A DNA stretch of 64,000 nucleotides from Patescibacteria group bacterium (GCA_041666845.1 JBAYGC010000004.1:7965-71964), one strand, 5' to 3'; shown: positions 2,397 to 31,080, numbered from the stretch's first letter. Notes: generated by a model not told the origin, from the letters alone. Numbers and translations are program-made.

Positions 2397-4292
2397 TTAT
2401 GATTCTGTTTGGTTTGCCATTTCCGCTTCAAACTCTTTTTTGGCATCTTCAATTTCCAGAAGCTGACGCGGATCGGATGTAATCAGCTGGTCTTCAGTAT
2501 ATGAAGCGACAATTTTTATTGCTGCGTGTTTTGCGCCCGCAAAAAATATACCTTCGCCTAAACCTGATTCAATCAATAAATATTTTTCTCCTTCCGTCAG
2601 CATAAAAGTGTTTACCAGGAGATCAATGCCGGCCGGTGATTGTTTCAACAGAAGCTGCAGAGATGAGTTGGTAACAATCGCCTGCCCATACGGAGAGCGC
2701 AAAAAGTCATTAACATCCTGCGTGATTGTCGTGACTCCGAGGTAGTACTTACGGCAGCGTTTTACCAGCGCATAAATAAACTTCGCCGAATCTTCATTCT
2801 GCATCAGCCACCAGGCTTCATCAATAACCAGCACCCTTTTTTTCACTTCGGAACGGACAATATTCCAGATATAGTTAATAATCGTGTAGATTCCGATCGG
2901 TCGCAACTCATCCTCCAAATCGCGGACGCTGAATACCACTAGCTGATTCTGTGTATCAATATTGGTCGGGCTGTTAAACAACCCGGCAAACGTACCTTTG
3001 GTATATTTTTTCAATCTTTCCGACAAATCCGCTCCGCCTTCCATGCCCAATAATATGTCTTCAAAATCCTGCATGATCGGCGCCTCAATCTTGGTCAAAT
3101 CCGATTCTGCGGATATATCCTTCTTCGCATAGGTTTCGATCAAAGCACGGTCTACTAATGAGTCTTCAGCATGTGTCAGATCACCGAGCATTAACCGCAC
3201 CAAACCTTTAAGGGTAATTACCGCCGAACGAATGATATCCGCCGGTTTATCCCTGCCCGAAACCGGACGTGGCAGGTCAAACGGATTAATCTTGCTTTCG
3301 GAGTTCAATGAGATATCAATATAAGCACCGCCTACTGCATCGCTTAAATGTTTATACTCCATTTCCGGATCGATAATAATAACCTCCGTACCAAGCATTA
3401 AGCTTCTGAGTACCTCCAGTTTAACCGCGTAGCTTTTTCCGGCACCGGAAGTGGCAAATACGACCGTATTGGCGTTTTGCAGACTGAAGCGATCAAACAG
3501 GATTAAACTATTATTATGTCGATTGACACCGTACAAGATGCCATTGTCTGATGTAAGTTCGGAAGAAATGAAAGGAAAGGATGAGGCACAAGGGGATGTA
3601 TTCATATTAAATGTGATATACAACTCGTCATTACCGATCGGCAAAGTTGAATTGAACCCCTGTTCCGACTGGAACAAAACGCGCTTGGAATAAACAAGTT
3701 TGGAACCGAAGATGGACTCGATCCTTTCCGTAATCCTGTCGAGTTCCTTTGTATCGTCCGCATAGGCAGATATATATAAAGCATATTGAAAGAATTTTTC
3801 CGTGCCTTGGGTTATTTCATCCCGGAGCATTTCAATATCTTTCAATGCAGTCTCTCTTAGGGGATCACGCGGAGCGCCTTTTTCCGCATCAGAAAGTATC
3901 TGCGCTTCCAGGGCACCGACTTTGTTCTTTAACTGTTTCAGGATTGCCTCGGGTTTTACCGGGTAAAAATACATGGCGATATCCATCGGAATATTCAGAT
4001 TGATCACCGGAGCAAACCAGCCAACGCTGATATATCTGGGGTAAGTAACTACAAAGACAGTACTGACAAATTTGGTGCCGAGCTGGACATAACGCGCATC
4101 AACCTTAAACGCTGAAGGGGCTATTAAATCACGGACTGAAACCACACCGCGCTGGAAAGACCTTTCCGCTTCAAGAATTTCTTTTTCTTCCTGAGCGAGT
4201 GTCCTTTCGCGTTCAGCTTGCTTCAAGGAAGACGCTTCCTTTTTTGCCTCTTCTTCGTCTTTGATATCCGCCTTTTTGAATAGTTGAACCAT
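2397..4292 (-). CDS. virB4: VirB4/TrbE/CagE-family T4SS ATPase, C-terminal ATPase portion
   Basis: Walker A (VVFATSGAGKSY), Walker B-like (RVLVIDEAWWLM), and the FVVTYPRY / LIAPS motifs typical of VirB4/TraE-PrgJ family. 631 aa. Confidence 0.85.
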   Translation of the reverse strand: MVQLFKKADIKDEEEAKKEASSLKQAERERTLAQEEKEILEAERSFQRGVVSVRDLIAPSAFKVDARYVQLGTKFVSTVFVVTYPRYISVGWFAPVINLNIPMDIAMYFYPVKPEAILKQLKNKVGALEAQILSDAEKGAPRDPLRETALKDIEMLRDEITQGTEKFFQYALYISAYADDTKELDRITERIESIFGSKLVYSKRVLFQSEQGFNSTLPIGNDELYITFNMNTSPCASSFPFISSELTSDNGILYGVNRHNNSLILFDRFSLQNANTVVFATSGAGKSYAVKLEVLRSLMLGTEVIIIDPEMEYKHLSDAVGGAYIDISLNSESKINPFDLPRPVSGRDKPADIIRSAVITLKGLVRLMLGDLTHAEDSLVDRALIETYAKKDISAESDLTKIEAPIMQDFEDILLGMEGGADLSERLKKYTKGTFAGLFNSPTNIDTQNQLVVFSVRDLEDELRPIGIYTIINYIWNIVRSEVKKRVLVIDEAWWLMQNEDSAKFIYALVKRCRKYYLGVTTITQDVNDFLRSPYGQAIVTNSSLQLLLKQSPAGIDLLVNTFMLTEGEKYLLIESGLGEGIFFAGAKHAAIKIVASYTEDQLITSDPRQLLEIEDAKKEFEAEMANQTES

Positions 4293-4303
4293 ATTTTTCC
4301 TTT

Positions 4304-5017
4304 TTATTTTTTATCGTCCTCTTCCATTGAACTAGAATCTTCTTCCACCTGAAGCTTATCCAAATCAACTAACTGCTCCTGGCTAAAAACTTCTGGATTA
4401 TATGTATTGTAGAAAAGCTCTATGATACTCTGGGTATCCAGCTGTACGGATTTCAATCCGATTGAAGATAGACCGTCAGTCACATAATCCACCCTTTTGA
4501 ACAGTTCGGTCCGATATTTATCAAACTTTTTACGTTTTAAATGAATGACTGATGTTGGTGATAATACCTCCTTCAATCTGGCAAAATATTTTTTTTGTTT
4601 ATCCGAAATCGGTGAATATGGAACAATAACATAAAATCTCTTGCTCATAATATCCGCGATCTCCACCAGCTCTTTAATGTATTGCTGATACTCCGCCGTC
4701 TGCATCCTGAGCAGTTCATTGGACTGCTCTTTTTCTACTTTCTTCAGCCGGTCCAGGTATTCTTCAATATTCAATTTCCTGGATTGAATTACAATTTGAA
4801 TGGAAAAATCAAACGAATTAAGAAACTGGGTATAGCCCTGAATAACAGCCACCTGCTCATCTTCCGATTTCAATGCGAAATTGATAGAAGAAACCAAAAT
4901 AATCGCCCTTAGGGTTCCATCTTTCATCGCAACTACGTTATCTTTAATCTCCAAAATATCGAGATGACTCTGTGTGGAAGCTTTTGGTTTTTGTCCTGCT
5001 AGCTGGTTAGAATGCAT
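4304..5017 (-). CDS. VirB4 N-terminal (CagE_TrbE_VirB-type) domain encoded as a separate ORF (split VirB4)
   Basis: 237 aa. The motif DGTLRAIILVSSINFALKSEDEQVAVIQGYTQFLNSFDFSIQIVIQSRKLN resembles the VirB4 N-terminal domain. Stops 12 nt upstream of the ATPase ORF in a different frame. The downstream ORF has its own AAGGA ribosome-binding site 6 nt before ATG, so it appears to be a genuine two-ORF arrangement rather than an obvious frameshift. Confidence 0.55.
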   Translation of the reverse strand: MHSNQLAGQKPKASTQSHLDILEIKDNVVAMKDGTLRAIILVSSINFALKSEDEQVAVIQGYTQFLNSFDFSIQIVIQSRKLNIEEYLDRLKKVEKEQSNELLRMQTAEYQQYIKELVEIADIMSKRFYVIVPYSPISDKQKKYFARLKEVLSPTSVIHLKRKKFDKYRTELFKRVDYVTDGLSSIGLKSVQLDTQSIIELFYNTYNPEVFSQEQLVDLDKLQVEEDSSSMEEDDKK

Positions 5018-6876: not shown

Positions 6877-7824
6877 TTATTTCAGTGTTGTTATTGGTCT
6901 TGACTGCGTAATATATATTTTATTTTTTTCTATCGCCCATTCAATATCCTGCGGATGCCGATAATGCTTTTCAATTGCTTCACAAACTGTTGCCAGCTTG
7001 ACGATTTGTTTGCCCGTAAGTTTCTGCCGCTCTTGTATTGCCTTTGGCACCTTAACTTTTTTTATTCCCTTAGTTCCGGCCTGGACAATCATTTCTTTTT
7101 GCTCGGAAATATTGACATCCAGGATTGCTTTCTCTTTTTTATCAAATACATACGTATCCGGTGTAATCTGTCCTGAAACTATCGCTTCACCTTGGCCATA
7201 ACCCGCTTCAATCACCATTTGATTCCGGTCATTAGTTACCGGATGGGCCGTAAAGGTGACACCGGACACTTCGGAATTAACCATTTTTTGCACCACCACC
7301 CCCACACTGACTTTGGTTTTATGCAGTTTCTTTTCAAAACGATAGAATATAGCACGCGGAGTAAATAATGAAGACCAGCATTTGCGCACAGCATCAGTCA
7401 AATTGGCACAAGTTACAAACAAATATGTTTCCAATTCCCCTGCCCAGGAAGCCACTGAGGAATCCTCTGCCGTTGCTGAGGAACGGACAGCAACGTATTT
7501 GGTCTTCAATTTGTTAAAGGATGTTATAACTTCCTTTGTAATATCTTCGGGAACGGTGAAATCATGAATCAAGTCCCGAATAGTATTGGATACCCGATCC
7601 ACACTGTTAATGTCATTCAGATTGACTTTCTTTAACAGTGCATCTATCTCAACATCCAGATCGGTTTCCGCTAAGAAACGCTCAAAAGTGCTGGAAAGTA
7701 TTACAAATCCAGGCGGAACTGGCATTTTTACCCTGGTCATCTCCCCCAGTTGTGCGCCTTTCCCTCCTGCTTCCGCTACACTCTTTCTATTTAATTGCGA
7801 AAAAGTTTTGGTAAATTTTGCCAT
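6877..7824 (-). CDS. Standalone PPDK_N-type ATP-grasp nucleotide-binding domain protein (PEP synthase / pyruvate-phosphate-dikinase / rifampin-phosphotransferase N-terminal domain only)
   Basis: 315 aa. Motifs GGKGAQLGEM, VAVRSSATAEDS, ASWAGELETY, FTPRAIFYR, VSVGVVVQKMV and DIEWAIE are diagnostic of Pfam PPDK_N. It has no swivel or PEP-binding domains. Confidence 0.8.
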   Translation of the reverse strand: MAKFTKTFSQLNRKSVAEAGGKGAQLGEMTRVKMPVPPGFVILSSTFERFLAETDLDVEIDALLKKVNLNDINSVDRVSNTIRDLIHDFTVPEDITKEVITSFNKLKTKYVAVRSSATAEDSSVASWAGELETYLFVTCANLTDAVRKCWSSLFTPRAIFYRFEKKLHKTKVSVGVVVQKMVNSEVSGVTFTAHPVTNDRNQMVIEAGYGQGEAIVSGQITPDTYVFDKKEKAILDVNISEQKEMIVQAGTKGIKKVKVPKAIQERQKLTGKQIVKLATVCEAIEKHYRHPQDIEWAIEKNKIYITQSRPITTLK

Positions 7825-7837
7825 GAAAAATCTTTTA

Positions 7838-7866
7838 TATTATAGCATAACTCATAATAATTCACA
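7838..7866 (-). promoter_or_regulatory. Candidate sigma70 promoter for the PPDK_N/T4SS operon (TTGTGA-17-TATAAT on minus strand)
   Basis: The reverse complement reads ttgtgaattattatgagttatgctataat, about 14 nt before the ATG at 7824. Confidence 0.35.
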
Positions 7867-7958
7867 ACATTACATACAGGCGCAATTACACCCCGCCTGC
7901 CTACGACCGAAGCCGTAGGCTACTGGCGGGCAGGAATCGCGCCTGTTCCCTGGCCATT

Positions 7959-7986
7959 GACCCCGTTAGAGCATTTGCTCTAACGG
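7959..7986. promoter_or_regulatory. Perfect 13-bp inverted repeat with 2-nt loop (ccccgttagagca tt tgctctaacgggg) abutting the -35 box; candidate operator or insulating hairpin
   Basis: Seen directly in the sequence. It is absent from the otherwise homologous copy-2 promoter region, where the flanking sequence ccattgac | ttgacaaat is contiguous. It is flanked by a TTGAC direct repeat. Confidence 0.5.
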
Positions 7987-8015
7987 GGTTGACAAATCTA
8001 CAAAAAAGGTATATA
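7987..8015 (+). promoter_or_regulatory. Consensus sigma70 promoter (TTGACA-17-TATAAT) driving GC-rich cassette 1
   Basis: TTGACA at 7987-7992, a 17-nt spacer, and TATAAT at 8010-8015. The ~190-nt conserved leader follows. Confidence 0.7.
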
Positions 8016-8213
8016 ATCCTGTGTTAATTAACCTACTAAAAGCAGGTCTAAGGCAGGCAGTTTTATTGGATTGCGTTAGTCAAATAAAATAGCGTGCTTT
8101 TGCACATGATTGCCCATTCGAAAACAATTGAGGAGTAATCCTCATAACAATACATTCACTACGTGAAGACGTGGTGAAGCAGGAGTATCCACTCCCCAGC
8201 CAAGGAGTTCGTG

Positions 8214-8867
8214 ATGGAACAGTTAGTTTCGCAGATCCTGGCCTGGATCCCCGTAGGTGCCACCCGCGTCTCTCTGCTCGGCCGGCATTCGCTGTCCGTG
8301 CAGATCGGACCGAACGATTCCCGCACGCTCTCGCCCAAGGGCATCAAGCTCTGCCACGAGGTGAGCGACTTCTACAACCGACTCGTCCGCGAACTGGAAA
8401 TACGCTTCGGTGGCAGTGCTGTTTGTTTCCGGTCCGAGATGGCGCGTTCGTTCTCGACCGTCTGGGAGATCTTGAATCCCGACCACATCATCTGCGACCC
8501 GCGCCTCAACCTGCTGGCCAGCCTGAAGAAGATCCAGGGTGGCGAATGGTACAGGAGACGGAAGATCGCTGGAAGATCCGACGTGGCGATCATTTCCGAT
8601 TTTCTAGCGGCCGATCTCAGTGTCGGCGAAGACCAGCCGTTCGGAGAAAATGCCTTGAACTATCGGGAGTGGGCTACCGAACTGGATAATGACACCCGCG
8701 TACGAATCACCTTCGCACACGAGGTGGCCTGTTCCCTGGCGGCCCACCCTTATCTCGACTCCGATGTCGAACCCGGCCTGTCCGAATGCCAGGCTTACCT
8801 GTTCTGTGTGGACGACGCGGGCAATGTCCTACACGTGATCAAGGTCACCCCTCCGGCTACCCTGTAG
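8214..8867 (+). CDS. GC-rich (~62% GC) ORF of unknown function, cassette paralog 1 (217 aa)
   Basis: AAGGAG ribosome-binding site at 8202-8207, 6 nt before ATG at 8214. Homologous along its whole length to 12600..13247, and the changes between the copies are mostly synonymous third-position changes, so it is protein-coding in this frame. The C-terminal 50 aa are identical to the paralog (VAFAHEVACSLAAHPYLDSDVEPGLSECQAYLFCVDD.GNVL.VIKVTPPATL). No recognisable family. The ORF-track start at 8211 is a GTG; the ATG at 8214 is preferred. Confidence 0.7.
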   Translation: MEQLVSQILAWIPVGATRVSLLGRHSLSVQIGPNDSRTLSPKGIKLCHEVSDFYNRLVRELEIRFGGSAVCFRSEMARSFSTVWEILNPDHIICDPRLNLLASLKKIQGGEWYRRRKIAGRSDVAIISDFLAADLSVGEDQPFGENALNYREWATELDNDTRVRITFAHEVACSLAAHPYLDSDVEPGLSECQAYLFCVDDAGNVLHVIKVTPPATL

Positions 8868-8896
8868 CCAACTCGCTCATTCCTCGCTTTTCGAAA

Positions 8897-8936
8897 GGTT
8901 CCCATTCACTCTCACGAATGCTCGGAGCCTTTTTTC
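8897..8936 (+). terminator. Rho-independent terminator of cassette 1 (nested stem ggttcc…ggagcc + T6), identical in cassette 2
   Basis: The outer stem ggttcc/ggagcc encloses the hairpin cattc-actctcac-gaatg and is followed by tttttt. It is 100% identical at 13277-13316. Confidence 0.6.
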
Positions 8937-9043
8937 TTTGGTAAGAAACACCCGCAAGCGCGAATTGCATTTACTATTCAAAAAAATAATGGTTGATTTT
9001 TTTGTCCAGATGTGTTACAATAAGCATATTAATCACCCAAACA

Positions 9044-9366
9044 TGAATATCGAAATAATCCGTAATGTAATACTGGCAATCGGTTGGCCAGTTTTATTTG
9101 TTTTCAGTCTTTACATATTTTTGATTGGTAAAAAGGTTTATTCCGTGATCAAGGGTTCTTTGGTCGGGAAAATTACCAAAGTGCTAATATATTCAATGCT
9201 GATTGAGATGTACAGTCTGGGCATCGTCAGTACGATGTATCTTTTTGAGAATGCTAAAGGAGTATATGTCGTCCTGCCCGTATTTATTGTCTGGGGTTTT
9301 GTCTTTGCCTGGAGCATTAACACAATTAAAAAATCGAGTGATTTAACCAATAATATTACAAAATAA
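9044..9366 (+). CDS. Small 3-TM membrane protein, tandem paralog A
   Basis: Starting at MNIEIIRNVILAIGWPVLF, it aligns with paralog B (MSLELMRNTILFIGWPILI). Shared core: KGSLVGKITKVL.Y.ML.EMYSLGIVST.Y.FENAKGVY.VLPVF. The longer ORF from 8938 is likely an over-extension. Confidence 0.5.
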
Positions 9367-9381
9367 TTAACTAATAAATTT

Positions 9382-9708
9382 ATGTCGCTAGAACTTATGA
9401 GAAATACTATATTATTCATTGGATGGCCGATATTGATCGGCGGCTCAATCTACATTTTTGTCAAAGGCAGGAGCGTTTACCAACTGGTCAAAGGATCGTT
9501 GGTCGGTAAAATAACCAAAGTTCTGGTTTATACCATGCTGGTTGAGATGTATTCACTGGGAATTGTCAGTACCGCTTATATGTTTGAAAATGCCAAAGGA
9601 GTTTACTGGGTACTGCCGGTATTTACCGGGTGGTTCATTACTTTTGTTTGGTCACTGAAAACACTAAAATCTGCTGGCGAGGAAGCCAAAAAAATTACCC
9701 AAGGATAA
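9382..9708 (+). CDS. Small 3-TM membrane protein, tandem paralog B
   Basis: 108 aa, about 60% identical to paralog A. Lies upstream of the histidine kinase. Confidence 0.55.
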   Translation: MSLELMRNTILFIGWPILIGGSIYIFVKGRSVYQLVKGSLVGKITKVLVYTMLVEMYSLGIVSTAYMFENAKGVYWVLPVFTGWFITFVWSLKTLKSAGEEAKKITQG

Positions 9709-9729
9709 AAAATTATTAACGTTAAAAAA

Positions 9730-10005
9730 ATGGCAAACGGTGAAGAATACAAAAATATAATGAGCGAGATGATTAAAAAGCAAATAGTCATCTTAGGGCC
9801 GGATATTGCAATTATGAAGGCAAAGAATGTTACCGAACTGACGATCAACCCGGATGGAGAGGTAACAGAAATCAACGGAGAACCGCAAGTGGCATTACAA
9901 AGATTAATTGACGAATATGTTGCGCTTTCGGGTTTAATTGTCAAAAAGACAATGGAACCTCTATTAGCAAAATATCCTTCAGTAGTAGTTGAGCAAAAAC
10001 AATAA
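9730..10005 (+). CDS. Hypothetical small soluble protein
   Basis: 91-aa ORF between the TM paralogs and the kinase. No motif recognised. Confidence 0.4.
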   Translation: MANGEEYKNIMSEMIKKQIVILGPDIAIMKAKNVTELTINPDGEVTEINGEPQVALQRLIDEYVALSGLIVKKTMEPLLAKYPSVVVEQKQ

Positions 10006-10028
10006 ATCTCAATAGAATTATAGAATTC

Positions 10029-11777
10029 ATGAATCAAACAAATGTAATGTTGATATTTATTTTTTCAGTTGTTATTGTTGCAATTGTTATTAGTTTTTGC
10101 ATTTATATCAGAAAATTACGTGGTACACTAAAAGCTGAAAGTGAAAAAAGAGAATCAGAAAACAGCCGGCGCATGTATGAGCTGTCAATTCTCAAAGAAA
10201 TCGGGGAAAGAGCCGGTTATTCATTAAATACTCAAAGGATTGCCGACATTATCACCGGTTCTTTAAAGGAACTAATTGATTATTCCACTACCTCCTACAT
10301 CCTGGAAGATTCTCAAAAGAAAGAACTGCTTTTTAAGTGCGAAGTTGAAGAAAGCGTCAGCCCGAAATTTGTAGAAGATGTAAAGAGCAGAATGGTAGCG
10401 GCGCTTTCGATATTAACCGACCAGAATTATCAGGAACGAAAGATTGAAGAAGTCGTTGCGGGGACTATTTTGGACGATGAGAATAATGAGCCTTTGAGTT
10501 CATTTTTTAATATTCCGCTGACCGTAGGTGACAAAGTTGTCGGTATTCTGAACGTGTCCAGCACTAAAACTGGCTTGTATAAAGAAGATGAGATGACCAT
10601 CCTGTATAAAATAACCGCACAGGCATCCAATGCCGTTACCCGTCTACAAGACGTATTGGACTCCGAGCAGAGCAAACTGAACGCCATGGTGGTCAGCATG
10701 GCTGACGGAGTATTGATGATTGATAGAGAAAACAGGGTATATGTTATTAATCCCAAAGTTAAAGAACTACTGGGGATAGAAAGTGAAGAAATATCCATAT
10801 TTGATATTATTGAGGCTTTTGAGGGCAAGGTGGATTTCAGAACCAAACTTGAAGAGTGTATAAAACTGAACCGTCAGGAAGTGGTTGAAGAAACCTATCT
10901 GCAACACCGGTACATCCGAATTCTGTTCTCACCAGTCAAAGATAAAAACAAAGAAACTTTAGGAGCTGTGATTATTCTGCATGATATTACACATGACAAA
11001 GAACTGGAAAAGGTTAAAGAGGACTTCACCAGTATGATGGTGCACGATCTACGCTCTCCTTTGAACGGGATCCGGCTGATTTCTGAAATGCTACAGGATA
11101 AGAAAATGCCGAAGGATCAGTTTTTGCAGTCGGCAAAGATGATTCACGAAAGCACTACTAACATCCTGGAGCTGGTTAATGATTTACTGGACGTTGCCAA
11201 ATTAGAAGCAGGTAAATTTATTGTCGCTAAAGAAAAGGGTGATTTGAAATCGGTAATTACCAGCAGGATCAATTTCTTTCAGGCTCTCGCTAACGAAAAA
11301 AATATAAAACTTGATTCCTATTGGGAACCGGATATTGAACAAATTCCGTTTGATGAAAAAGAAATAGTACAAGTTTTGAATAATCTCCTGTCCAACGCAA
11401 TCAAGTTTACCAATAAAAATGGTAAAGTAACCGTACAAACACTGCTCCTAAAAAAAGATGAAGACGTTAATAAGAAAGCGGATGCCAATAAAATTAAATG
11501 GTTTATTTCGAATGCATCCCCTGCTCTGATGCAGAGTAAAAATGATTTGTTAATCTGCGCCGTCACTGATAACGGCAGTGGCATTGAACAGGATAAAATT
11601 AAAAAGCTGTTTAATAAATTCCAGCAGGTAGAAAGCGGTAAAAAATCAGAGGTAAAAGGGACAGGGCTGGGTTTAGTAATCGCCAAGGGCATAATTGAAG
11701 CGCATGGTGGCATGGTTGGTGTTGAATCCGTAATGAAAAAAGGTAGTACGTTTTATTTTACATTACCATTAGAATAA
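10029..11777 (+). CDS. Sensor histidine kinase (N-terminal TM, GAF-like and PAS-like regions, HisKA H-box, HATPase_c)
   Basis: N-terminal TM helix. H-box MVHDLRSPLNGI, N-box LSNAIKFT, G-boxes DNGSGI and GTGLGLVIAKGIIEAHGG. Confidence 0.85.
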   Translation: MNQTNVMLIFIFSVVIVAIVISFCIYIRKLRGTLKAESEKRESENSRRMYELSILKEIGERAGYSLNTQRIADIITGSLKELIDYSTTSYILEDSQKKELLFKCEVEESVSPKFVEDVKSRMVAALSILTDQNYQERKIEEVVAGTILDDENNEPLSSFFNIPLTVGDKVVGILNVSSTKTGLYKEDEMTILYKITAQASNAVTRLQDVLDSEQSKLNAMVVSMADGVLMIDRENRVYVINPKVKELLGIESEEISIFDIIEAFEGKVDFRTKLEECIKLNRQEVVEETYLQHRYIRILFSPVKDKNKETLGAVIILHDITHDKELEKVKEDFTSMMVHDLRSPLNGIRLISEMLQDKKMPKDQFLQSAKMIHESTTNILELVNDLLDVAKLEAGKFIVAKEKGDLKSVITSRINFFQALANEKNIKLDSYWEPDIEQIPFDEKEIVQVLNNLLSNAIKFTNKNGKVTVQTLLLKKDEDVNKKADANKIKWFISNASPALMQSKNDLLICAVTDNGSGIEQDKIKKLFNKFQQVESGKKSEVKGTGLGLVIAKGIIEAHGGMVGVESVMKKGSTFYFTLPLE

Positions 11778-11791
11778 TTTATAATACAAAT

Positions 11792-12160
11792 ATGGCAAAA
11801 AAAATATTAGTCATCGACGATGACGATGCAATCCAACAAGTTGTAAAATCTGCCCTCCTTTCCGAAGGCTATGAGGTAAGAATTGCCGATGATGGCAAAG
11901 AGGGTATAAAAGTAGTTAAAGAATTCGAACCGGACTTGATAATACTGGATATTATAATGCCGGTAATGGATGGTTTGGGGTTCTTAAAAGAAAATAAAAA
12001 TAAATCAATTCCAGTCATTATACTGACTTCTCTGGGCAAAGATGATAATGAGCAGAAATTTATTGATCTGGGAGCCAAGCATTTTCTGCAGAAGAGTATT
12101 GTACATATTGATGATATTAAACAAAAAATTGCTGAGGTATTGAAAGAGAAAAGCAAATAG
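11792..12160 (+). CDS. Stand-alone response-regulator receiver (CheY-like) domain protein
   Basis: KKILVIDDDDAIQ…DLIILDIIMPVMDGLGF…ILTSLG receiver signature. 122 aa, with no output domain. Confidence 0.8.
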   Translation: MAKKILVIDDDDAIQQVVKSALLSEGYEVRIADDGKEGIKVVKEFEPDLIILDIIMPVMDGLGFLKENKNKSIPVIILTSLGKDDNEQKFIDLGAKHFLQKSIVHIDDIKQKIAEVLKEKSK

Positions 12161-12176
12161 CAAATTGGGTAAATTG

Positions 12177-12206
12177 AAAACCTCGGGACAAACCCGGGGT
12201 TTTATT
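12177..12206 (+). terminator. Rho-independent terminator after the two-component module
   Basis: aaaa cctcggg acaaa cccgggg ttttatt. Confidence 0.6.
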
Positions 12207-12217
12207 ATTGATCTTTT

Positions 12218-12362
12218 TTTATTGTTCACCCCCACACTGACTTTGGTTTCGTGTGGTTTCTTCTTATAACGATAGAAAATAGCACATAAAGTGAATAATG
12301 AAGACCAGTATTTGCACACATCATCAATCAAATTGGTTTTAGTAACAAACAAATATGTTTTC
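12218..12362 (-). pseudogene. Relic fragment of a PPDK_N ATP-grasp gene (duplicate of 7283-7432)
   Basis: About 85% nucleotide identity to the internal part of 6877..7824. It encodes …CKYWSSLFTLCAIFYRYKKKPHETKVSVGV…, which matches VRKCWSSLFTPRAIFYRFEKKLHKTKVSVGVV in the intact gene. It lacks both gene ends, and the ORF-track entry 12005..12352 is only this relic. Confidence 0.55.
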
Positions 12363-12380
12363 GCCCTCCCCCTTCAGCCA

Positions 12381-12409
12381 TTGACAAATATGCAAAAATG
12401 GTATATAAT
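12381..12409 (+). promoter_or_regulatory. Consensus sigma70 promoter (TTGACA-17-TATAAT) driving GC-rich cassette 2
   Basis: TTGACA at 12381-12386 and TATAAT at 12404-12409. The leader at 12410-12599 is about 90% identical to the cassette-1 leader. Confidence 0.7.
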
Positions 12410-12599
12410 CCCCTGTTAATTAACCTGCTAAAAGTAGGTCTAAGGCAGGCAGTTTTATTGGATTGCGTTAGTCAAATAAAACAGCGTGCTTTTGCACATA
12501 GTTGCCCATTCGAAAACAATTGAGGAGTAATCCTCATAACAATACATTCGCTGCGTGAGCACGTGGCGAAGCAGGATCCCCCAAGCCAAGGAGTTCGTG

Positions 12600-13247
12600 A
12601 TGGAAATGGGACAGATGATCCAAATGATCTTTTCCGCGATTCCCGACGGTACCACCCGCGTGTCCTTGCTTGGTCGGCATTCGCTGTCCGTGCAGGACGG
12701 GCCCAACGACACCCGCGCGCTCTCGCCCAAGGGCATCGAACTCTGTCACGAGGTGCGTGGTTTCTACGCTCATCTCGTCCTGAATCTGGAACTCATCGGC
12801 AACGCCTCCTACTACTATTCCCAGATGGCACGTTCACTCATAACCATCCGGGAGATTCTGCTTCCGCGTAACTTCATCCTGGATGAACGACTGAACCTGC
12901 TGGCCAGCCTGAAGAAGATACAGGGCGGCGCCTGGTTCAAGGCGCAGAAGGACACCGGGCATTCCGATGTGGAGATTATCCGCGCCTTCCTGACCGATTC
13001 CAGCATCGGCGCCGGCCAGCCGTTCAAGCAGAACGCCGCGAACTACCTGGCCTGGGCTACCGAACCATACGGCCACCGTCTGCGAGTCGCTTTCGCACAT
13101 GAGGTGGCCTGTTCCCTGGCGGCCCACCCCTATCTCGACTCCGATGTCGAACCCGGCCTGTCCGAATGTCAGGCCTACCTGTTCTGCGTGGACGACTCGG
13201 GCAATGTCCTGCGCGTGATCAAGGTCACCCCTCCGGCTACCCTGTAG
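12600..13247 (+). CDS. GC-rich ORF of unknown function, cassette paralog 2 (215 aa)
   Basis: Same ribosome-binding-site context (AAGGAGttcgtgATG). About 60% aa identity to 8214..8867, with an identical C-terminus and 3' UTR. Confidence 0.7.
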   Translation: MEMGQMIQMIFSAIPDGTTRVSLLGRHSLSVQDGPNDTRALSPKGIELCHEVRGFYAHLVLNLELIGNASYYYSQMARSLITIREILLPRNFILDERLNLLASLKKIQGGAWFKAQKDTGHSDVEIIRAFLTDSSIGAGQPFKQNAANYLAWATEPYGHRLRVAFAHEVACSLAAHPYLDSDVEPGLSECQAYLFCVDDSGNVLRVIKVTPPATL

Positions 13248-13276
13248 CCAACTCGCTCATTCCTCGCTTTTCGAAA

Positions 13277-13316
13277 GGTTCCCATTCACTCTCACGAATG
13301 CTCGGAGCCTTTTTTC
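13277..13316 (+). terminator. Rho-independent terminator of cassette 2 (identical to 8897-8936)
   Basis: Identical sequence to the cassette-1 terminator. Confidence 0.6.
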
Positions 13317-13386
13317 TTTGGGAAAAACTTGAAATTTTATCAAAATAATGCCAATATTACACTAATAGACAATTAAACATAAACTT

Positions 13387-14280
13387 ATGAAAGAAATCGG
13401 ACCAATAGCAGTAGATAAAATTGAACAAGGAAAGGAAAGGGAAGGAGAATTACCAAAAATGACCGTCTTTTTATTACGCCATGGAGAAAGTAATAATGAC
13501 AAAACAAATCCCAATCGAGGACTTACTAACAAGGGTACGGAGCAGGTAACAGAAAGCATTAATCAGATATTAAATAGCCTATTGTTAGAAGGCAATCCGG
13601 ACTTTGAAGCATGGGATAATGAAGAGTCAAGAATAACCGCCGTTCAAAATGCCATCCAAAATGTAGAATTCCATCTGAGAGATTCCGGTACTGCCAGAAC
13701 ATTGGAGCAGGTTTGGCTGGAATATGAAATACTAAAACAATACGGAGTACCGGAAGAACACATTTATCTGCCACAAAGCGCATTTGAATATAAAGATAAA
13801 GAACCGGACGAAAAAGCCGGTCCCGGCATAGCTAAAAGGCTCAAAGGAGTTCAAGGAATGGACCAGAACCCGGCATATAGGACTAAAATCAAATCAAAGG
13901 AATACCAAGAACGCGTTGGTGCAACCGGAGACATGATGGCCTGGGCCATTTCACCCGAAGAAGATGTCCCGGATGATGTTGAAAAAAGAAGTCACATGGA
14001 AGAACGTTACGCGTCTGATATTGCGAAACTTGACCGGGTAGTCACCCACAAAATGGAAGGTTATCCAAAACGGGTAGTAGCGATTGCCAATTCCCATGCT
14101 TCCATTGCTACTATTGCCGCCGCCAAAGAATCTGGAATCCCACTCGAAAAACTCATGGGGAAAATCGGGGAAGTGCCGGAAGCTCAGGGTTTGCGTTATG
14201 ATTTTTATGAAGGTGAAACTGAACATACAGCCAAACCCTTCGGCCCTGAGATGGAACAGGTTATAACAGAATTGAGATAA
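13387..14280 (+). CDS. Histidine phosphatase superfamily (phosphoglycerate-mutase/SixA-like, RHG motif) protein
   Basis: The N-terminal motif VFLLRHGES is the catalytic RHG signature of branch-1 histidine phosphatases. The true start is possibly the internal Met at 13459 (MTVFLLRHGES). Confidence 0.65.
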   Translation: MKEIGPIAVDKIEQGKEREGELPKMTVFLLRHGESNNDKTNPNRGLTNKGTEQVTESINQILNSLLLEGNPDFEAWDNEESRITAVQNAIQNVEFHLRDSGTARTLEQVWLEYEILKQYGVPEEHIYLPQSAFEYKDKEPDEKAGPGIAKRLKGVQGMDQNPAYRTKIKSKEYQERVGATGDMMAWAISPEEDVPDDVEKRSHMEERYASDIAKLDRVVTHKMEGYPKRVVAIANSHASIATIAAAKESGIPLEKLMGKIGEVPEAQGLRYDFYEGETEHTAKPFGPEMEQVITELR

Positions 14281-14374: not shown

Positions 14375-15883
14375 TTATTTAATCTTCAATATCCCGGTAT
14401 TACCATCTACTGCCACGATTTGTCCGTCTTTAAGAATCTTGGTTGTCATTCTCAAGCCAATAATTCCGGGAATTCCTGCCTCACGAGCTAGAGTGGCAGG
14501 ATGTGAAGTAATCCCCGGCCCTCCATCACAAATCAGCGCTGAAGCTATAGAAAGCACTTGAGTAAATACAGGCGTAGCTTGCAGAGTACATATAATATCT
14601 CCCCTTTTCACTTTATGGAATGAATCTGGATTAATCACAATCTTCACCGGCCCCTTGGCAACACCCGGTGAAACAGCCATACCTACTAATTCTTTTACGT
14701 TCTTGTCTACTTCCACAAATTTTTTATAATACTGTTTCGCTTTTTCTCCTGTAAACAAACTCGTTTTGCCATTTTCCATAATAAACGCACACAGCTTTAT
14801 TCTTTCATTAAGGATATTACTCATATCTAAATCTTTGGTAAGCATCGGTCTGACTTCTGCGGTTCGCAAATGACGCGCCTGGCGCATGGAAAGCCCGCCA
14901 CGCCGAGCTATTTCCATCAAAATCGGATCATAGTAATAAAGGGTCTGTGAGACAATGCTTTTCCGCAGTTCTTTATAGTAGATCCCTTCGCGCATTGTTT
15001 GAAATAAGCGTTGATGTTTTTTGTCAATTTTTAATTTATCTTGAATCTCATTTATCTTCGTGTCAATTTCTTTTTCCTTTATCAGCATTTTTTCTAATAT
15101 ATTCCCAGGATTTCTTTTTAGATGCTTTTTAAAACGAATGATAAAATCTTCGTATGTTAATACCGGATCGTCATAATCCCTAGTAATCCAAAAGAATTTT
15201 CTCTCATGATTCTTTATTAATCTCAATAACTCTTTATCTTTTTGAATAGAGCTAGTGGTATTTATGACATTTCCCATAAAATAATCTGCCCACTTTTTTC
15301 GCTTATTAATAATCTTGCATATTTTTAAAGCAGCTAAAGTTTCCTGCCTACTTACCATTGCTTTTGTTTCTGTAATAAGAGCATCCACATAATGCGCGGC
15401 TTTTTTTGTATCCGATTCTTTAGCGGCTATATACTCCTGCAAATATTTAAACAAATAGTTTTCTATAGCCAAAATCGGGAAATAGTGGGAATACACCTGT
15501 TTATAGCGTCTTTCGTATTCCTCGTGCAATCCCGCCAACCTGCTGTTACTTACTGTTCTAAGTTTTTTTAGATTATTATTCTTCTTCAGAAATCCATAGA
15601 AGCTTTTGGCAAACGCCTTCTGTGTTTTACCAAGCTTAATAAACATGTCCGGCTTTAGAAATACTATTTTTAAAACATGCTTCCCCACTCGTTCGTGATC
15701 GGCCTTATCAAAATACAAATACATATGATTCTCTTCAAACATCTGCACTATTCTTTTATAGGTAGTCCCGACTACATTTTTTAGCTCTTTTCCGATTGAC
15801 TCCATTGAAAGGTAATTTGGAAAAGGGCTCATCCGCTGCCTTTGGGATATTTGGAACCATACGATTTTTTTATTCTTGATCAT
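14375..15883 (-). CDS. PEP-utilizing-enzyme mobile (phosphohistidine swivel) domain protein, paralog 1; divergent ~390-aa helical N-domain
   Basis: C-terminal GGPGITSHPATLAREAGIPGIIG plus upstream GVAKGPVKIV…GDIICTLQATP match Pfam PEP-utilizers with the catalytic His. No ATP-grasp or PEP-binding TIM barrel. Confidence 0.8.
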   Translation of the reverse strand: MIKNKKIVWFQISQRQRMSPFPNYLSMESIGKELKNVVGTTYKRIVQMFEENHMYLYFDKADHERVGKHVLKIVFLKPDMFIKLGKTQKAFAKSFYGFLKKNNNLKKLRTVSNSRLAGLHEEYERRYKQVYSHYFPILAIENYLFKYLQEYIAAKESDTKKAAHYVDALITETKAMVSRQETLAALKICKIINKRKKWADYFMGNVINTTSSIQKDKELLRLIKNHERKFFWITRDYDDPVLTYEDFIIRFKKHLKRNPGNILEKMLIKEKEIDTKINEIQDKLKIDKKHQRLFQTMREGIYYKELRKSIVSQTLYYYDPILMEIARRGGLSMRQARHLRTAEVRPMLTKDLDMSNILNERIKLCAFIMENGKTSLFTGEKAKQYYKKFVEVDKNVKELVGMAVSPGVAKGPVKIVINPDSFHKVKRGDIICTLQATPVFTQVLSIASALICDGGPGITSHPATLAREAGIPGIIGLRMTTKILKDGQIVAVDGNTGILKIK

Positions 15884-16013: not shown

Positions 16014-17540
16014 TCAATAAACCTGAGAGTTTATATTCCTTTTAATGATGCCTTTTGTCGCGTCTACTTCCACCACGTCACCATCCTTGAATACTTTAGT
16101 GGCAACCTCTGTACCAATTATACATGGTATTCCCAATTCCCGGGATACTATTGCTGCATGGCAGGTAATACCACCAGCATTAGTAACAATGGCAGCTGCT
16201 TTATTCATAGCTGGCACCAATGATGGATTGGTGGAATAACTAAGCAAAATATCACCCTCATTGAATTTGTTCAAATCGCCAGTGGAATTAATTATCTTCA
16301 CAATGCCTTTGGCTTTGCCCGGATAGGCTACTTGACCTCTGATAATATCACTGTGTTTAATATTGGGCTTGGTCTGGACAAATAATTTTTTAAATTCTTT
16401 AGCCTTCGCACCAGTATAAAAGCCAACTCGACCATTTATTAAAATATGAGCTGAACATTGATACCGTTCATTTAATTGATTGTTAGTAAATGCTTTTTTG
16501 TTTTTTAACAAAATATCCTGATACTCAGCTCTAGTGACATAACGAGCCTGTAGTGGTGACCAATAAAAACGACTGGCAATTTCTTGATACCATCTGCCCA
16601 TAGCATAATTATGGTAATAAACCTGAACTTCTTTCCTAATTTCTTTTAAATAAGCTAGCTCCCGAACAATCTCGATTTGGTGCCATTCTTCTTTAGTAAA
16701 AAATGATTTTGCTTTGCTGTGAAACTTTTTAAGTTCAGCTAACCTTTTCTGTTTTATCCTTATTTCTTTATCAGGAAATATCCCCCATCGCCTTTTGACT
16801 AGATCAAGATAATATTCTGGACCAGCAGGCGGACCAACATAATAATATTGCAACCAGCCAAACTTTTCGGCCAGTCTTTTCAAATCGTTTTGAGCGTCAG
16901 TGGATAATTCTCCTATATTTTTACTATTTTTAAACTGTCTTAATAAATCTTTATTTTTCTTTGTTTTACTAATAAATTTTAAAACTGATAAATTTTCTTC
17001 GCTAATAGCGGTCGGCTTAGTAGAAGCAACTAAATTACTAAATACAATTTCCGGGTTACCTAATTTTTTTAACTTAAGCTCTAATTCTTGATATAAATTC
17101 ACCGAAAATTTAACCCTACTCATATCCAGTGTTTGCACTACCAAACCCCATTTCCAGCACTCAGCAAAAACATCATACAAGCCACAGTAAATTTTAAATA
17201 ACTGATTGTTTGTTTTCATCTTTAGATTGTCGGCCAATAAACGTCGACATAATATTTTCATCATTTTAAAAGCATCATAGTGGCCACGACAAAGCTGCTG
17301 AAAAAACTTTTTATCTTTAATTAACTTCTGACCAAAATAATCCCCTGCTTTTATAAACTGCGATTCTACGGGCCCCCAAGTCACAAAATCTTTTTCAAAA
17401 ACAAATAAACTCTCCAACTTTAATTTGTTGGCAGAAAGTTTTGGCAAATCTATCTTAAAATTTTTCTCATTCAAAATACACCAAGGAGTCAAAGCTACAT
17501 TATAATCCTCAACTAAAATGACAAATTTTCTTTTTGGCAT
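16014..17540 (-). CDS. PEP-utilizing mobile domain protein, paralog 2
   Basis: C-terminal GGITCHAAIVSRELGIPCIIG and AYPGKAKGIVKII…GDILLSYSTNP. Confidence 0.8.
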   Translation of the reverse strand: MPKRKFVILVEDYNVALTPWCILNEKNFKIDLPKLSANKLKLESLFVFEKDFVTWGPVESQFIKAGDYFGQKLIKDKKFFQQLCRGHYDAFKMMKILCRRLLADNLKMKTNNQLFKIYCGLYDVFAECWKWGLVVQTLDMSRVKFSVNLYQELELKLKKLGNPEIVFSNLVASTKPTAISEENLSVLKFISKTKKNKDLLRQFKNSKNIGELSTDAQNDLKRLAEKFGWLQYYYVGPPAGPEYYLDLVKRRWGIFPDKEIRIKQKRLAELKKFHSKAKSFFTKEEWHQIEIVRELAYLKEIRKEVQVYYHNYAMGRWYQEIASRFYWSPLQARYVTRAEYQDILLKNKKAFTNNQLNERYQCSAHILINGRVGFYTGAKAKEFKKLFVQTKPNIKHSDIIRGQVAYPGKAKGIVKIINSTGDLNKFNEGDILLSYSTNPSLVPAMNKAAAIVTNAGGITCHAAIVSRELGIPCIIGTEVATKVFKDGDVVEVDATKGIIKRNINSQVY

Positions 17541-17561
17541 ATTATTAAATACATAATCATA

Positions 17562-19028
17562 CTATTTATTCAACTTTTTTATAATTCCCCTATTCGCGTC
17601 CACTTCCACCAGATCGCCATCTTTTAATACTCTAGTAGCAACCTTTGTCCCAATTACACAGGGGACCTTCAATTCCCTAGCTACAATAGCGGCGTGACAA
17701 GTAATACCGCCAGAGTCAGTGATTATTGCACCGGCTTTTTGCATAGCAGGAACGACTTGAGGATTTGTGGATGTTGATACAAGTATATCTCCTTTTTTCA
17801 TTTTCGGTAGATCTAATACCTCGTCAATCCGTTTAACCACACCTTTTACTAAACCCGGATAAGCAGTATTTCCGTAAAGTACTTTGATTTTTGGATCAAC
17901 ACATAACGAACGTGAGATATCTTGAGAGATCCGCTTCACATTATTACCAGAAAGCACTTGATAATCAGTGCCTTTAAATAATACTACCGATTCCCTAATT
18001 CGTTCGTTCATTAATTCGGCACTGATATTGTTTTTCAGCAAGGCATCTTTCATTTCCTTTGGTGAAATCATGGATGCCTGGACTCTGGACAAATGATTTC
18101 TTTTGGCCAATTCTTGAATAAAATCATCCATTAGTAAGTGGGCCTTCTGGTTTAAGAATTTCCGTTCGAATTTCCAAAACCCCAGAGTTCGTAAAGCATG
18201 GATAACTCTTTTTTCCTGAACATTTAACCCAAGTTCCTGTTCCATGTTCTCCTGTTTTTTTGATAACCTATTTGCCGACTTGCCTTTTACAGCTAGCAGC
18301 TCCGTAACTGTCACTTTCTTGGCAGGAAGCAGGCTGAGCCGCTGTCGGATATCTTTTACTCCCCAAGCTGGTCCGTTATAACCATAACCGATCCAAGCGT
18401 ATTTCTTAAGATGATCAGCAACATCTTTTTTTGATAACTCATATCTCAGTTGTTTAAGCCGTAGCTTCAGCAAAGCCTTTTCCTCACGCAATATCACAGT
18501 TTCTCGGGGGGAAGAAGACAAAAGTTGAAAATATTCCCCGATTTTCTCATTACCTTTCCCTAATTTCCGACTAATGATCTGTTCCACTCGGTTGCTCAAA
18601 AGAGGTATTTCCATTTCAGCTGCGGTCGCCATTACACTATAAGTCATCATAGAAATAAATTTTTTCAGCCAATCCTGCCAGCGTGCTCTAAGTTCTTGAC
18701 CGCTCAATGCCGATAAATCACCTGAAAGCTTTTCTGCTGCTTCAAGCATCATCGGTACTTCTTTTTTATTTACTAACTCAATTTTTTTTAGCAAAATATC
18801 ATTTTGCTCTAGACGCTCTAGAATCTTTCTTCCAGGAACGGCTAAAGATCCTTCATTTGTTAGATAACTGAACGAGTTATCCTTATACCAACAGCCAATA
18901 ATACCATCCTCCACACCCACCTTTTTTGCTGCATATTGCGCACACCACCAGTACAGCATGGTGGGATAAAGATAAGCATTTTTATCATGGGCCAGTTCAA
19001 GCCATTTCTTTTGATATTGAATACTCAT
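17562..19028 (-). CDS. PEP-utilizing mobile domain protein, paralog 3
   Basis: C-terminal GGITCHAAIVARELKVPCVIG and AYPGLVKGVVKRI…GDILVSTSTNP. Confidence 0.8.
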   Translation of the reverse strand: MSIQYQKKWLELAHDKNAYLYPTMLYWWCAQYAAKKVGVEDGIIGCWYKDNSFSYLTNEGSLAVPGRKILERLEQNDILLKKIELVNKKEVPMMLEAAEKLSGDLSALSGQELRARWQDWLKKFISMMTYSVMATAAEMEIPLLSNRVEQIISRKLGKGNEKIGEYFQLLSSSPRETVILREEKALLKLRLKQLRYELSKKDVADHLKKYAWIGYGYNGPAWGVKDIRQRLSLLPAKKVTVTELLAVKGKSANRLSKKQENMEQELGLNVQEKRVIHALRTLGFWKFERKFLNQKAHLLMDDFIQELAKRNHLSRVQASMISPKEMKDALLKNNISAELMNERIRESVVLFKGTDYQVLSGNNVKRISQDISRSLCVDPKIKVLYGNTAYPGLVKGVVKRIDEVLDLPKMKKGDILVSTSTNPQVVPAMQKAGAIITDSGGITCHAAIVARELKVPCVIGTKVATRVLKDGDLVEVDANRGIIKKLNK

Positions 19029-19029
19029 A

Positions 19030-20508: not shown

Positions 20509-20553
20509 ATTTTTTCCCGTGAAGATGTTCTAAATATATCACATGTTGATTAA

Positions 20554-30999: not shown

Positions 31000-31005
31000 T
31001 CTAAT

Positions 31006-31080
31006 TGGTGCCCCCATGAGGAATCGAACCTCAATCTTAGGCTCCGGAAGCCCACATTCTATCCGTTGAACTACAGGGGC
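31006..31080 (-). tRNA. tRNA-Arg (anticodon CCG), CCA encoded
   Basis: The reverse complement reads GCCCCTG-TA-GTTC-AACGGATA-GAAT-G-TGGGC-TTCCGGA-GCCTA-AGAT-TGAGG-TTCGATT-CCTCA-TGGGGGC-A-CCA. This gives a cloverleaf with a 7-bp acceptor stem (two G-U pairs), U8, a GTTCGATTCC T-arm, U33 and anticodon CCG. Confidence 0.85.

Follow-up and report, generated by a model that had tools for sequence, protein, structure and literature searches.

A stretch of 64,000 nucleotides (nt) from a Patescibacteria group bacterium (GCA_041666845.1, JBAYGC010000004.1:7965-71964), hereafter named the window, carries two GC-rich paralogous open reading frames (ORFs) on its plus strand, W1 (copy 1, 8214-8867) and W2 (copy 2, 12600-13247). 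They are recorded under the NCBI tags WC693_04670 and WC693_04700 and under JGI 3300037810, on the contig of a Patescibacteria metagenome-assembled genome (MAG). We propose, with moderate confidence, that W1 and W2 are copies of a long-resident, duplicated gene with a histidine-phosphatase fold, whose ends were converted and whose products would act with the split dikinase encoded beside them. An original prediction made from this DNA had described them as a horizontally acquired two-copy module whose protein has no recognisable family. Related loci compared with the window are designated by L-numbers, and a third GC-rich unit of the window is named W3.

W1 and W2 are predicted to adopt a histidine phosphatase fold

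The W1 and W2 products, of 217 and 215 amino acids (aa), share 68% aa identity. Single-protein searches of Pfam, PADLOC, NCBIfam and PDB sequences with W1 and W2 gave nothing significant, with no match at E<=1 in Pfam or NCBIfam, His_Phos_1 included, and none to TIGR00249. A word-indexed homolog search returned only 4-6 relatives, while an exhaustive profile search among 1.84 billion representatives yielded 70 proteins, of which nearly all have about 200-240 aa. All homologs that carry an organism name belong to Patescibacteria and all are annotated as hypothetical. No relatives were found among the viral contigs searched, and a profile search of genome contigs with a narrow alignment found the L001 genome alone. 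Its divergence puts the family beyond the reach of sequence models.

Structure prediction was more informative. The AlphaFold2 (AF2) model built from 62 sequences (predicted local distance difference test score, pLDDT, 97.3; predicted template modelling score, pTM, 0.92) has the alpha/beta fold of the histidine phosphatase superfamily (PGAM/SixA-like, branch 1), so the claim that the family is unrecognisable does not hold. An earlier model from four sequences (pLDDT 68) led to the same list of families, which by fold includes PGAM5, CobC, fructose-2,6-bisphosphatase and phytases. When the family profile was compared with PDB sequences, the matches were weak (E 0.02-0.3) and consisted of PGAM5, SixA and phosphoglycerate-mutase-like chains; the PGAM5 (‘LIRHSQ’) and SixA (‘RHA’) matches shown align on the RH motif.

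The residues that characterise the superfamily are found in the expected order along the chain. The N-terminal Arg-His pair (R24-H25) lies in a GRHS motif, with Ser in place of Gly as in PGAM5, and is followed by the conserved residues R78, E85, H169 and E170. The 16 closest members all carry R24, H25 and H169, and they carry R78 and E170 almost without exception; all putative catalytic residues of W1 are kept in W2. The HEV...HEVAC motifs pointed out in the original prediction correspond to C47-H48-E49-V50 and A168-H169-E170-V171-A172-C173, the latter being probably catalytic. The poorly conserved middle of the protein coincides with helices at residues ~104-155 of the AF2 model. By analogy, these helices would form a cap that sets substrate specificity; since the variable middle is this putative cap, the pattern of conserved ends and variable core may at the protein level partly reflect the architecture of the fold. 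Taken jointly with the other parts of our proposal, and with the same moderate confidence, W1 and W2 would represent a new, divergent and unannotated family of the histidine phosphatase superfamily that is restricted to Patescibacteria.

Each copy is a complete GC-rich transcription unit

W1 and W2 are each monocistronic, with their own promoter, structured leader, strong Shine-Dalgarno (SD) sequence, ORF and long-stem terminator. In copy 1, the promoter TTGACA-17-TATAAT (7989-8017, plus strand) matches the consensus at 12/12 positions and is kept in L001, L003 and L006. It is followed by a leader of about 190 nt (8018-8213, plus strand), which contains a hairpin named P2 (8050-8101) followed by UUUU, three more hairpins and the SD sequence AAGGAG (8202-8207). 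An intrinsic terminator (8894-8935, plus strand), made of a two-tier hairpin, AAAGGTTCC...GGAGCCTTT, and a T-run, closes the unit. Copy 2 has the same organization, all on the plus strand: a TTGACA-17-TATAAT promoter with a 12/12 match (12381-12409), a leader (12410-12599) with P2 at ~12442-12493 and AAGGAG at 12588-12593, and a terminator (13274-13315) that shows no difference from that of copy 1. AAGGAG stands 6 nt 5′ of the ATG in both cases (8214 and 12600). The two units and their anatomy were thus as the original prediction had them, at the coordinates it gave, and so were the textbook promoters and ribosome-binding sites.

These signals are rare in the window. Between positions 5000 and 16000, the two promoters are the only 12/12 sigma-70 matches, and the pattern TTGACA-N16-18-TAnAnT occurs at only four sites in the whole window, three of which head GC-rich units. 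A strong SD sequence was found at three of the 39 gene starts checked, namely those of W1, W2 and W3 (33712); the regions upstream of native genes are AT-rich and carry none, which bears out the claim that native genes lack such sites.

Composition sets the ORFs apart as well. W1 and W2 have a GC content of 59-60% (62-65% in the richest 200-nt segments) and a GC content at third codon positions (GC3) of 0.74-0.77, compared with 0.30-0.48 in every other long ORF of the window except 33712-34299. Their codon usage is atypical, with CTG/CTC, ACC (94%) and AAG (100%), and this distinct codon table together with GC3 gives them the anomalous composition expected of a recent genomic island. The leader is host-like, at about 40% GC. 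The whole window has 41.5% GC, not the ~35% that the original prediction gave for the genome.

The gene occupies a conserved locus in six lineages

We examined the position of the gene in related genomes. In the window it lies between a gene for a PPDK_N (ATP-grasp) domain protein and genes for PEP-utilizers domain proteins. The same arrangement (PPDK_N, family gene, PEP-utilizers) is found in five other lineages: L001 and L003 (single-copy orthologs with 59% and 57% protein identity, respectively), L008/L009 (39-41%, with two tandem copies in L008), L010-12 (41%) and L134/135, which belong to Ca. Komeilibacteria (44-45%). In each lineage, PPDK_N is transcribed divergently from the family gene and the PEP-utilizers genes are convergent with it. 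Genes for VirB4-like, TraC-like and PrgI proteins, conserved in all lineages, lie beyond PPDK_N on the longer contigs (window, L001, L010-12 and L134/135). The SD site of the family is also present in L001, L003, L006, L008, L010 and L135.

In the comparison with L001, W1 and W2 have a synonymous divergence (dS) of 0.62-0.70 and a nonsynonymous divergence (dN) of 0.26-0.31; the flanking genes have a dS of 0.6-1.0 and a dN of 0.002-0.07. Since dS equals that of the neighbours, the gene appears to be as old at this locus as they are, and the protein evolves 4-100 times faster. At the nucleotide level, the flanks are on average 86-87% identical to L001 and the ORFs 71-74%. Orthologs share the elevated GC3 to different extents: 0.84 in L001, 0.72 in L003, 0.42-0.46 in L008 (neighbours 0.25-0.30), 0.29 in L010 (neighbours 0.13-0.22) and 0.54 in L135 (neighbours 0.39-0.60). 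GC-rich codon usage thus appears to be ancestral to the clade formed by the window, L001 and L003, with no sign of recent import.

These data bear on the idea that a GC-rich, SD-using donor provided the cassettes, promoter and ribosome-binding site included, and that duplication followed. Such an origin would explain the contrast in GC3 and codon usage, the restriction of strong SD sequences to W1, W2 and W3 and of perfect promoters to W1 and W2. Third-position changes in W1 and W2, when polarised, are also mostly from GC to AT, as amelioration would predict (18 against 2, a direction in which parsimony is itself biased). Moreover, a distant member, L007, lies in a non-syntenic GC-rich island of three ORFs, and the L003 unit is bracketed by one GC-rich palindrome. 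However, six lineages keep the synteny, even where protein identity has fallen to 39-45%, the dS of the orthologs equals that of the flanking genes, and neither the names of the homologs among the 70 proteins retrieved nor the viral contigs point outside Patescibacteria. The host-like leader argues in the same direction, and a transfer would need to be older than the last ancestor shared by the window, L001 and L003. We consider a foreign module improbable, and recent foreign acquisition is largely refuted. Neither absence from the syntenic site nor outside donors, as expected for a recent island, were found, and no integrase, transposase or attachment site was seen among the annotated neighbours (part of the window ORFs was scanned). 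The single-copy syntenic homologs are of the ordinary kind, so the part of the original prediction that invoked horizontal transfer fails; the function suggested by the fold is no known housekeeping one. A search of the literature on GC-rich islands in the Candidate Phyla Radiation (CPR) and on PPDK_N/PEP-utilizers in Patescibacteria found nothing relevant.

The abrupt shift of composition at the borders of the units could also suggest that GC-rich segments had been misjoined into an AT-rich contig during assembly. This is extremely unlikely, as protein sequences and junctions agree among the JGI, NCBI and ENA records of this genome. For the L001 ortholog, an NCBI MAG shows the same junctions, and a Logan assembly of SRR6484324, made separately, spans the two of them. 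The same architecture is found in L003, L006, L008, L010-12 and L134/135, which come from different samples.

The ends of the two copies are more conserved than the coding core

W1 and W2 resemble each other most outside the coding core. The promoters are identical at 26/29 positions, the leaders are 92% identical, and the 3′ untranslated region (3′UTR) with the terminator is identical at all 72 positions (8868-8939, 72/72), versus 75% nt identity for the whole ORF and 68% for its core (8331-8717). The final 150 nt of the ORF are 94.7% identical (8 mismatches). The claim that the non-coding flanks are better conserved than the coding core is therefore confirmed. The figures given for the leader (about 90%) and the 3′UTR (100%) also stand, whereas the core had been put too low (about 60%) and the last 150 nt of the ORF too high (100%). 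Between W1 and W2, dN is 0.23 and dS 0.60. Synonymous sites are depressed as well in the last 40 codons (dS 0.14-0.27). We looked for positive selection and found dN/dS >1 in none of the 20-codon segments.

A decayed PPDK_N fragment of 134 nt, located 5′ of copy 2 (12227-12360, minus strand), could serve as a neutral reference. It is 84% identical to the internal PPDK_N segment from which it derives (7297-7430, minus strand, repeat family D6), a repeat that the original prediction left unexplained. With this pseudogene fragment as a clock (16% divergence), the probability of 72/72 identity in the 3′UTR is about 0.84^72 = 3.5e-6. The excess of flank over core conservation is more than chance.

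To follow the history of each segment, we scored informative sites along the unit as W1=W2 : W1=L001 : W2=L001. The 5′ part of the leader gives 19:0:3, which groups the two paralogs. The signal then switches in the ORF: nt 1-117 group W1 with L001 (4:19:7), nt 118-307 give 25:22:22, and nt 308-505 group W2 with L001 (19:17:38). The paralogs group together again from nt 506 to 654 (33:3:4) and in the 3′UTR (13:0:0). Because of these switches in topology, and of a 72/72 identical 3′UTR beside a co-duplicated fragment of 84% identity, homogenisation of the 5′ leader and of the 3′ end (last ~150 nt of the ORF, 3′UTR and terminator) by gene conversion is well supported by the alignments. Of the three mechanisms offered in the original prediction, gene conversion limited to the flanks is thus supported.

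Another of the three, an RNA-level constraint, has partial support, as leader and terminator are kept across species with some compensatory pairs. The terminator of copy 1 is 100% identical to that of copy 2, 95% to L001 and 82% to L003. The 3′ half of the leader is 86-93% identical to L001, and 40-nt windows of the ORF range from 46 to 94%, mostly 60-80%. Since conservation between species exceeds that of most of the ORF, the 3′ half of the leader and the terminator are probably also under purifying selection as RNA elements. The third, an antigenic-variation-like cassette, was not borne out: each of the two copies has its own perfect promoter, SD sequence and terminator, unlike integron-type or antigenic-variation loci, and the window yielded no silent copy. 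No further partial copies were found there either, and no recombinase was identified among the neighbours examined.

Could selection alone keep the flanks alike, as functional RNA or DNA elements answering for example to one trans-acting co-regulator, with no gene conversion? The conservation of the 3′ half of the leader, of its structure and of the terminator across species would fit, and so would the L008 tandem pair, where the conserved islands coincide exactly with promoter and terminator. However, the 28-nt spacer of the 3′UTR (8868-8895) shows no difference between W1 and W2 (100% identity) yet shares only ~55% identity with L001, and the 5′ part of the leader (8027-8090) is 92-97% identical between the paralogs and ~59% identical or deleted in L001. 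The depressed dS of the last 40 codons argues against it too. Promoter-proximal and terminator sequences are wholly different between lineages, so that constraint does not act on one particular sequence. We therefore regard selection on its own as very improbable.

The mosaic signal of the ORF calls for another alternative. Promoter/leader and 3′ end could serve as homology arms, through which transformable Patescibacteria exchange a specificity-determining middle between strains or paralogs; a high GC3 would follow as well if recombination were frequent and came with GC-biased gene conversion. This would account for a mosaic history (nt 1-117 and nt 308-505 each uniting a different copy with L001) although the duplication postdates the L001 split. 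The core, with a dS of 0.6-2 and a dN of about 0.3, is also more divergent than the 16% of the pseudogene fragment would predict, the L008 pair has proteins of 39% identity inside near-identical promoter and terminator modules, and W3 shows a sharply divergent 130-nt segment relative to its ortholog. On the other hand, the donor alleles are hypothetical, with only five close sequences at hand, and dN/dS stays <=1 in all 20-codon segments. Third-position changes in W1/W2 run toward AT, opposite to GC-biased conversion, with the parsimony bias acting in the same direction (see above). The divergent middle of W1 has a GC3 of 0.64 versus 0.81-0.83, as fast AT-biased point mutation would give; the divergent 5′ segment of W2 lacks such a drop. 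Finally, the homology arms in L008 are just 40-50 nt long. This exchange of the middle is a possible but unlikely explanation. A broader form of it, to which we give somewhat less credit, sees a fixed ‘expression socket’ of promoter/leader and terminator with a swappable middle. W1, W2 and W3 would then form a GC-rich, SD-dependent, separately expressed and recombination-prone compartment with consensus promoters, long preserved in genomes that are AT-rich and SD-less elsewhere, and its composition would not come from genome-wide mutation bias.

The L008 pair is an independent recurrence of flanks conserved above the core. Its tandem genes, P0007 and P0006, share two islands (2890-2940 / 3855-3905 and 3728-3770 / 4678-4715), and its promoter and terminator modules are wholly unlike those of the window.

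The leader is predicted to form a conserved RNA structure

The leader of copy 1 folds with a minimum free energy of -54.6 kcal/mol (z = -3.4). The consensus structure consists of P2, a 21-bp hairpin followed by UUUU, and three further hairpins. In an alignment of only five sequences, from which the structure was itself derived, 85.7% of the cells are paired, compared with 37-49% in slid controls, and nine pairs changed on both sides. A search of Rfam found no match in the window at the gathering threshold; over 7850-9050, none reached E<=1. P2 and its U-run might be a riboswitch-type attenuator, but P2 of L001 starts about 10 nt after the predicted start, leaving no upstream room for a sensor; a role as a 5′ stabilising hairpin or as a protein-binding site seems at least as likely.

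Nested GC-rich hairpins lie 5′ of copy 1 (7878-7988, no strand assigned), with an outer palindrome, CAGGCGCAATT...AATCGCGCCTG, at 7878-7945. A hairpin CCCCGTTAGAGC...GCTCTAACGGGG (7961-7988), also kept in L001, touches the -35 box of copy 1. In L003, a perfect palindrome, GCAGGCGCGAATTC(A/G)AATTCGCGCCTGC, stands on both sides of the unit (780-815 and 1795-1822). In the window, its upstream counterpart (7878-7945) contains a nested GC-rich hairpin insertion and the downstream one (8954-8966) is a remnant; no other repeats of the palindrome were found across the window. Possible identities are an insulator, a terminator or the scar of an old insertion. A scan of metagenome DNA with the 15-mer core of the terminator, AAAGGTTCCCATTCA, gave at least 120 matches, and among the matches listed none encodes a family member according to tblastn.

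A third GC-rich unit carries an unrelated gene

W3 (33517-34500, plus strand) sits among minus-strand genes. It comprises a TTGACA-17-TATAGT promoter, a leader of ~165 nt, the SD sequence GGAGGT, an ORF of 195 aa (33712-34299, GC3 0.71), a hydrophobic ORF of 43 aa and a terminator. The 195-aa ORF has no Pfam or NCBIfam match. Its ortholog in the L001 genome (77% aa identity) has the same build and synteny and a GC3 of 0.72, compared with 0.33-0.43 for its neighbours; the last ~130 nt of the W3 ORF are only ~50% identical to it. W1, W2 and W3 have common codons (CTG/CTC, ACC, AAG, ATC and TTC). We considered W1-type and W3-type leaders as one RNA module. They share the promoter and, close to the start, a GTTAA motif, but otherwise align weakly, and the stability of the W3 leader is ordinary (z = -1.05).

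The cargo of W3 is unrelated to W1 and W2, and the window therefore has three genes of two unrelated families that are GC-rich and SD-led in an otherwise SD-less background. The excess of GC-to-AT changes at third positions of W1 and W2, beside balanced changes in L001 (8 vs 6), fits a gradual loss of ancestral GC richness better than an active GC drive, again in the direction toward which parsimony is biased. Candidates for the source of this ancestral richness are an ancient transfer into the ancestor of the clade, selection for SD-dependent high expression, and a recombination-associated GC bias.

GC-rich islands were also seen on the L007 contig, which has ~40% GC. A three-ORF island (3300-4800, 55-67% GC) lies beside genes for AbiEii, NUDIX, thioredoxin and DsbA, and a second one (1-1200) is at the contig end.

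The neighbouring genes probably encode a split dikinase

The PPDK_N gene (6877-7824, minus strand, 315 aa), divergent from copy 1, matches Pfam PF01326 (E 4e-99), and its product aligns with residues 4-316 of 5FBS (E 8e-57), which is the rifampin phosphotransferase RPH (PMC4844700). The first PEP-utilizers gene (14375-15883, minus strand) encodes a protein of 502 aa with a match to Pfam PF00391 at residues 426-497. This protein aligns with residues 631-865 of 5FBS (E 6e-12), i.e., the C-terminal end of RPH with the swivel His domain. It is one of seven PEP-utilizers paralogs of ~360-590 aa, each ending in a swivel domain, the others being located at 16014-23249 and 29419-31182 (repeat families D1 and D2); the PPDK_N gene is single. 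From their sequences, the PPDK_N product, as the ATP-binding component, and the PEP-utilizers products, as the components for substrate binding and the swivel, would form a split dikinase of the RPH/PEP-synthase type, transferring phosphate via a phospho-His swivel domain, and the locus looks like a one-to-many split dikinase system.

A further gene follows copy 2 (13387-14280, plus strand). Its 297-aa product contains a LLRHGES motif (LLRHGESNND) and matches the SixA model TIGR00249 at E 3e-4, below the cut-off. hhalign aligns its RHGES with the RHS of the W1/W2 family with a probability of 34%. Judging by sequence, this is probably a second, very divergent and unrelated-looking protein of the histidine-phosphatase type. 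It is present in L001 and L003 and not in L008, L010 or L135.

Five genes lie between the two copies (9044-12160, plus strand). This block is headed by two adjacent genes for small membrane proteins that are paralogs of each other (~107 aa, 9044-9366 and 9382-9708); the other genes encode a protein of 91 aa, a histidine kinase with GAF/PAS domains and a response regulator. In L001, the block is located elsewhere, after the PEP-utilizers and HAD genes.

Other features were seen further along the window. Five paralogous phosphoribosyltransferase-domain genes of ~210-235 aa surround a PEP-utilizers gene at 28125-33405. A tRNA is located at 31009-31080 (minus strand) and an APH-like kinase at 34507-35553. 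Two very large minus-strand ORFs of 1220 and 3114 aa occupy 37138-50161, with a local GC content of 45-51%.

Proposed duplication history and function

The gene orders of the window and L001 were compared. In L001, the order is PPDK_N, the family gene, a 300-aa gene, PEP-utilizers, HAD and a block of genes for two membrane proteins, a small protein and a histidine kinase. In the window, it is PPDK_N, copy 1, this block, the PPDK_N fragment, copy 2, the 297-aa gene and PEP-utilizers. The fragment (12227-12360), which would mark the edge of the segmental duplication, carries window-specific states in comparison with L001 and L003; most of the changes in it are G>A and C>T. These states suggest that the duplication began inside PPDK_N and took place after the L001 split. 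A lineage-specific tandem duplication of a segment running from within PPDK_N through the family gene to the block would have been followed by reciprocal deletions that left the histidine kinase/response regulator block between the copies; duplication and reciprocal loss would explain, as predicted, the difference in gene order between the window and L001. Later, the middle of the protein would have diverged fast, while leader and 3′ end would have been homogenised by gene conversion.

For the enzyme itself, we propose from the conserved residues that His25 of the RHS motif would be the nucleophile, that R24, R78 and H169 would form the phosphate pocket and that E170 or E85 would act as the acid. 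In six lineages, the gene stands between those for the two parts of a phospho-His relay, which suggests that its product would remove the phosphate installed by this relay. The target could be the phospho-His of the swivel proteins, in a SixA-like manner, or phosphorylated small molecules, as for RosC, CobC or PhoE, and the two paralogs would serve different members of the seven-paralog swivel array.

Several observations weigh against this proposal. The link to the dikinase is one of gene neighbourhood only, and the distant member L007 (27% identity) lies in a different gene context. Membership of the superfamily is argued from fold and motif conservation while the curated sequence models are all silent, and some distant members lack H25 or H169, so that catalysis may be absent from parts of the family. 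Uneven rates or the import of divergent alleles are needed to explain the segments where a window copy is nearer to L001 than to its paralog. The tandem copies of L008 have 39% aa identity, yet their promoters are 91% and their terminators ~95% identical, and islands so short are hard to maintain by ordinary gene conversion. Finally, the proposal leaves unaccounted for the GC3, SD sequence and consensus promoter shared with the unrelated W3.

The present analysis provides a predicted fold, and a chemistry that can be tested, for a family that is annotated as hypothetical everywhere and goes undetected by curated sequence models. It also ties this family to a locus with one ATP-grasp protein, seven swivel phospho-His paralogs and up to three genes of the histidine-phosphatase type. 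If split RPH-like dikinases regularly work with such a phosphatase, the two would form a kinase/phosphatase cycle in organisms with a poorly understood metabolism, with possible roles in antibiotic or metabolite modification or in phospho-His regulation. The analysis also shows that a compositional anomaly combined with a consensus promoter and an SD sequence does not amount to recent horizontal transfer, which calls for caution when islands are called in CPR genomes. Three genes of two unrelated families with GC-rich codons and canonical initiation signals amid an SD-less genome remain a puzzle.

Comparison with known systems

Concerted evolution of bacterial paralogs through partial gene conversion is known, for example, in tuf gene pairs. 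As in that case, identity specific to W1 and W2 occurs in tracts, and different parts of the gene give different phylogenetic signals. In contrast to tuf-type evolution, conversion has here affected the regulatory ends while the middle of the coding sequence has diverged, and the same picture recurs in the independent L008 pair, with proteins of 39% identity.

W1 and W2 share with SixA (1UJC) the N-terminal Arg-His dyad and the C-terminal His, and their neighbours carry phospho-histidine domains, the type of substrate on which SixA acts. Unlike SixA, they give no significant sequence match, are ~60 aa longer, contain the helical insert at ~104-155 and have an RHS...HE motif instead of RHG...SH. 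The SixA family proper has a capless core of ~155 aa, recognised by TIGR00249, and targets histidine phosphotransfer (HPt) domains; W1 and W2, at 215-217 aa with a helical insert, fall outside it. The neighbouring phospho-histidine domains are PEP-utilizers swivel domains, not HPt domains, and no HPt protein was identified beside W1 and W2. RosC (8S6Q), PhoE (1H2E), CobC (6E4B) and phosphoserine phosphatase (4IJ5) show 13-14% identity and have another genomic context. As far as the model and these comparisons go, what would be new here is a divergent family within a known superfamily, with a new genomic partnership.

HpeHI is a characterised two-component split dikinase (PMC12167813). No mention of a phosphatase partner for HpeHI or RPH was found in the available portions of PMC12167813 and PMC4844700. 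Like these dikinases, the neighbours of W1 and W2 consist of an ATP-grasp protein and separate C-terminal swivel-His proteins that match the corresponding parts of RPH. Unlike them, the window combines one ATP-grasp gene with seven swivel paralogs and has one to three genes with a putative histidine-phosphatase fold alongside.

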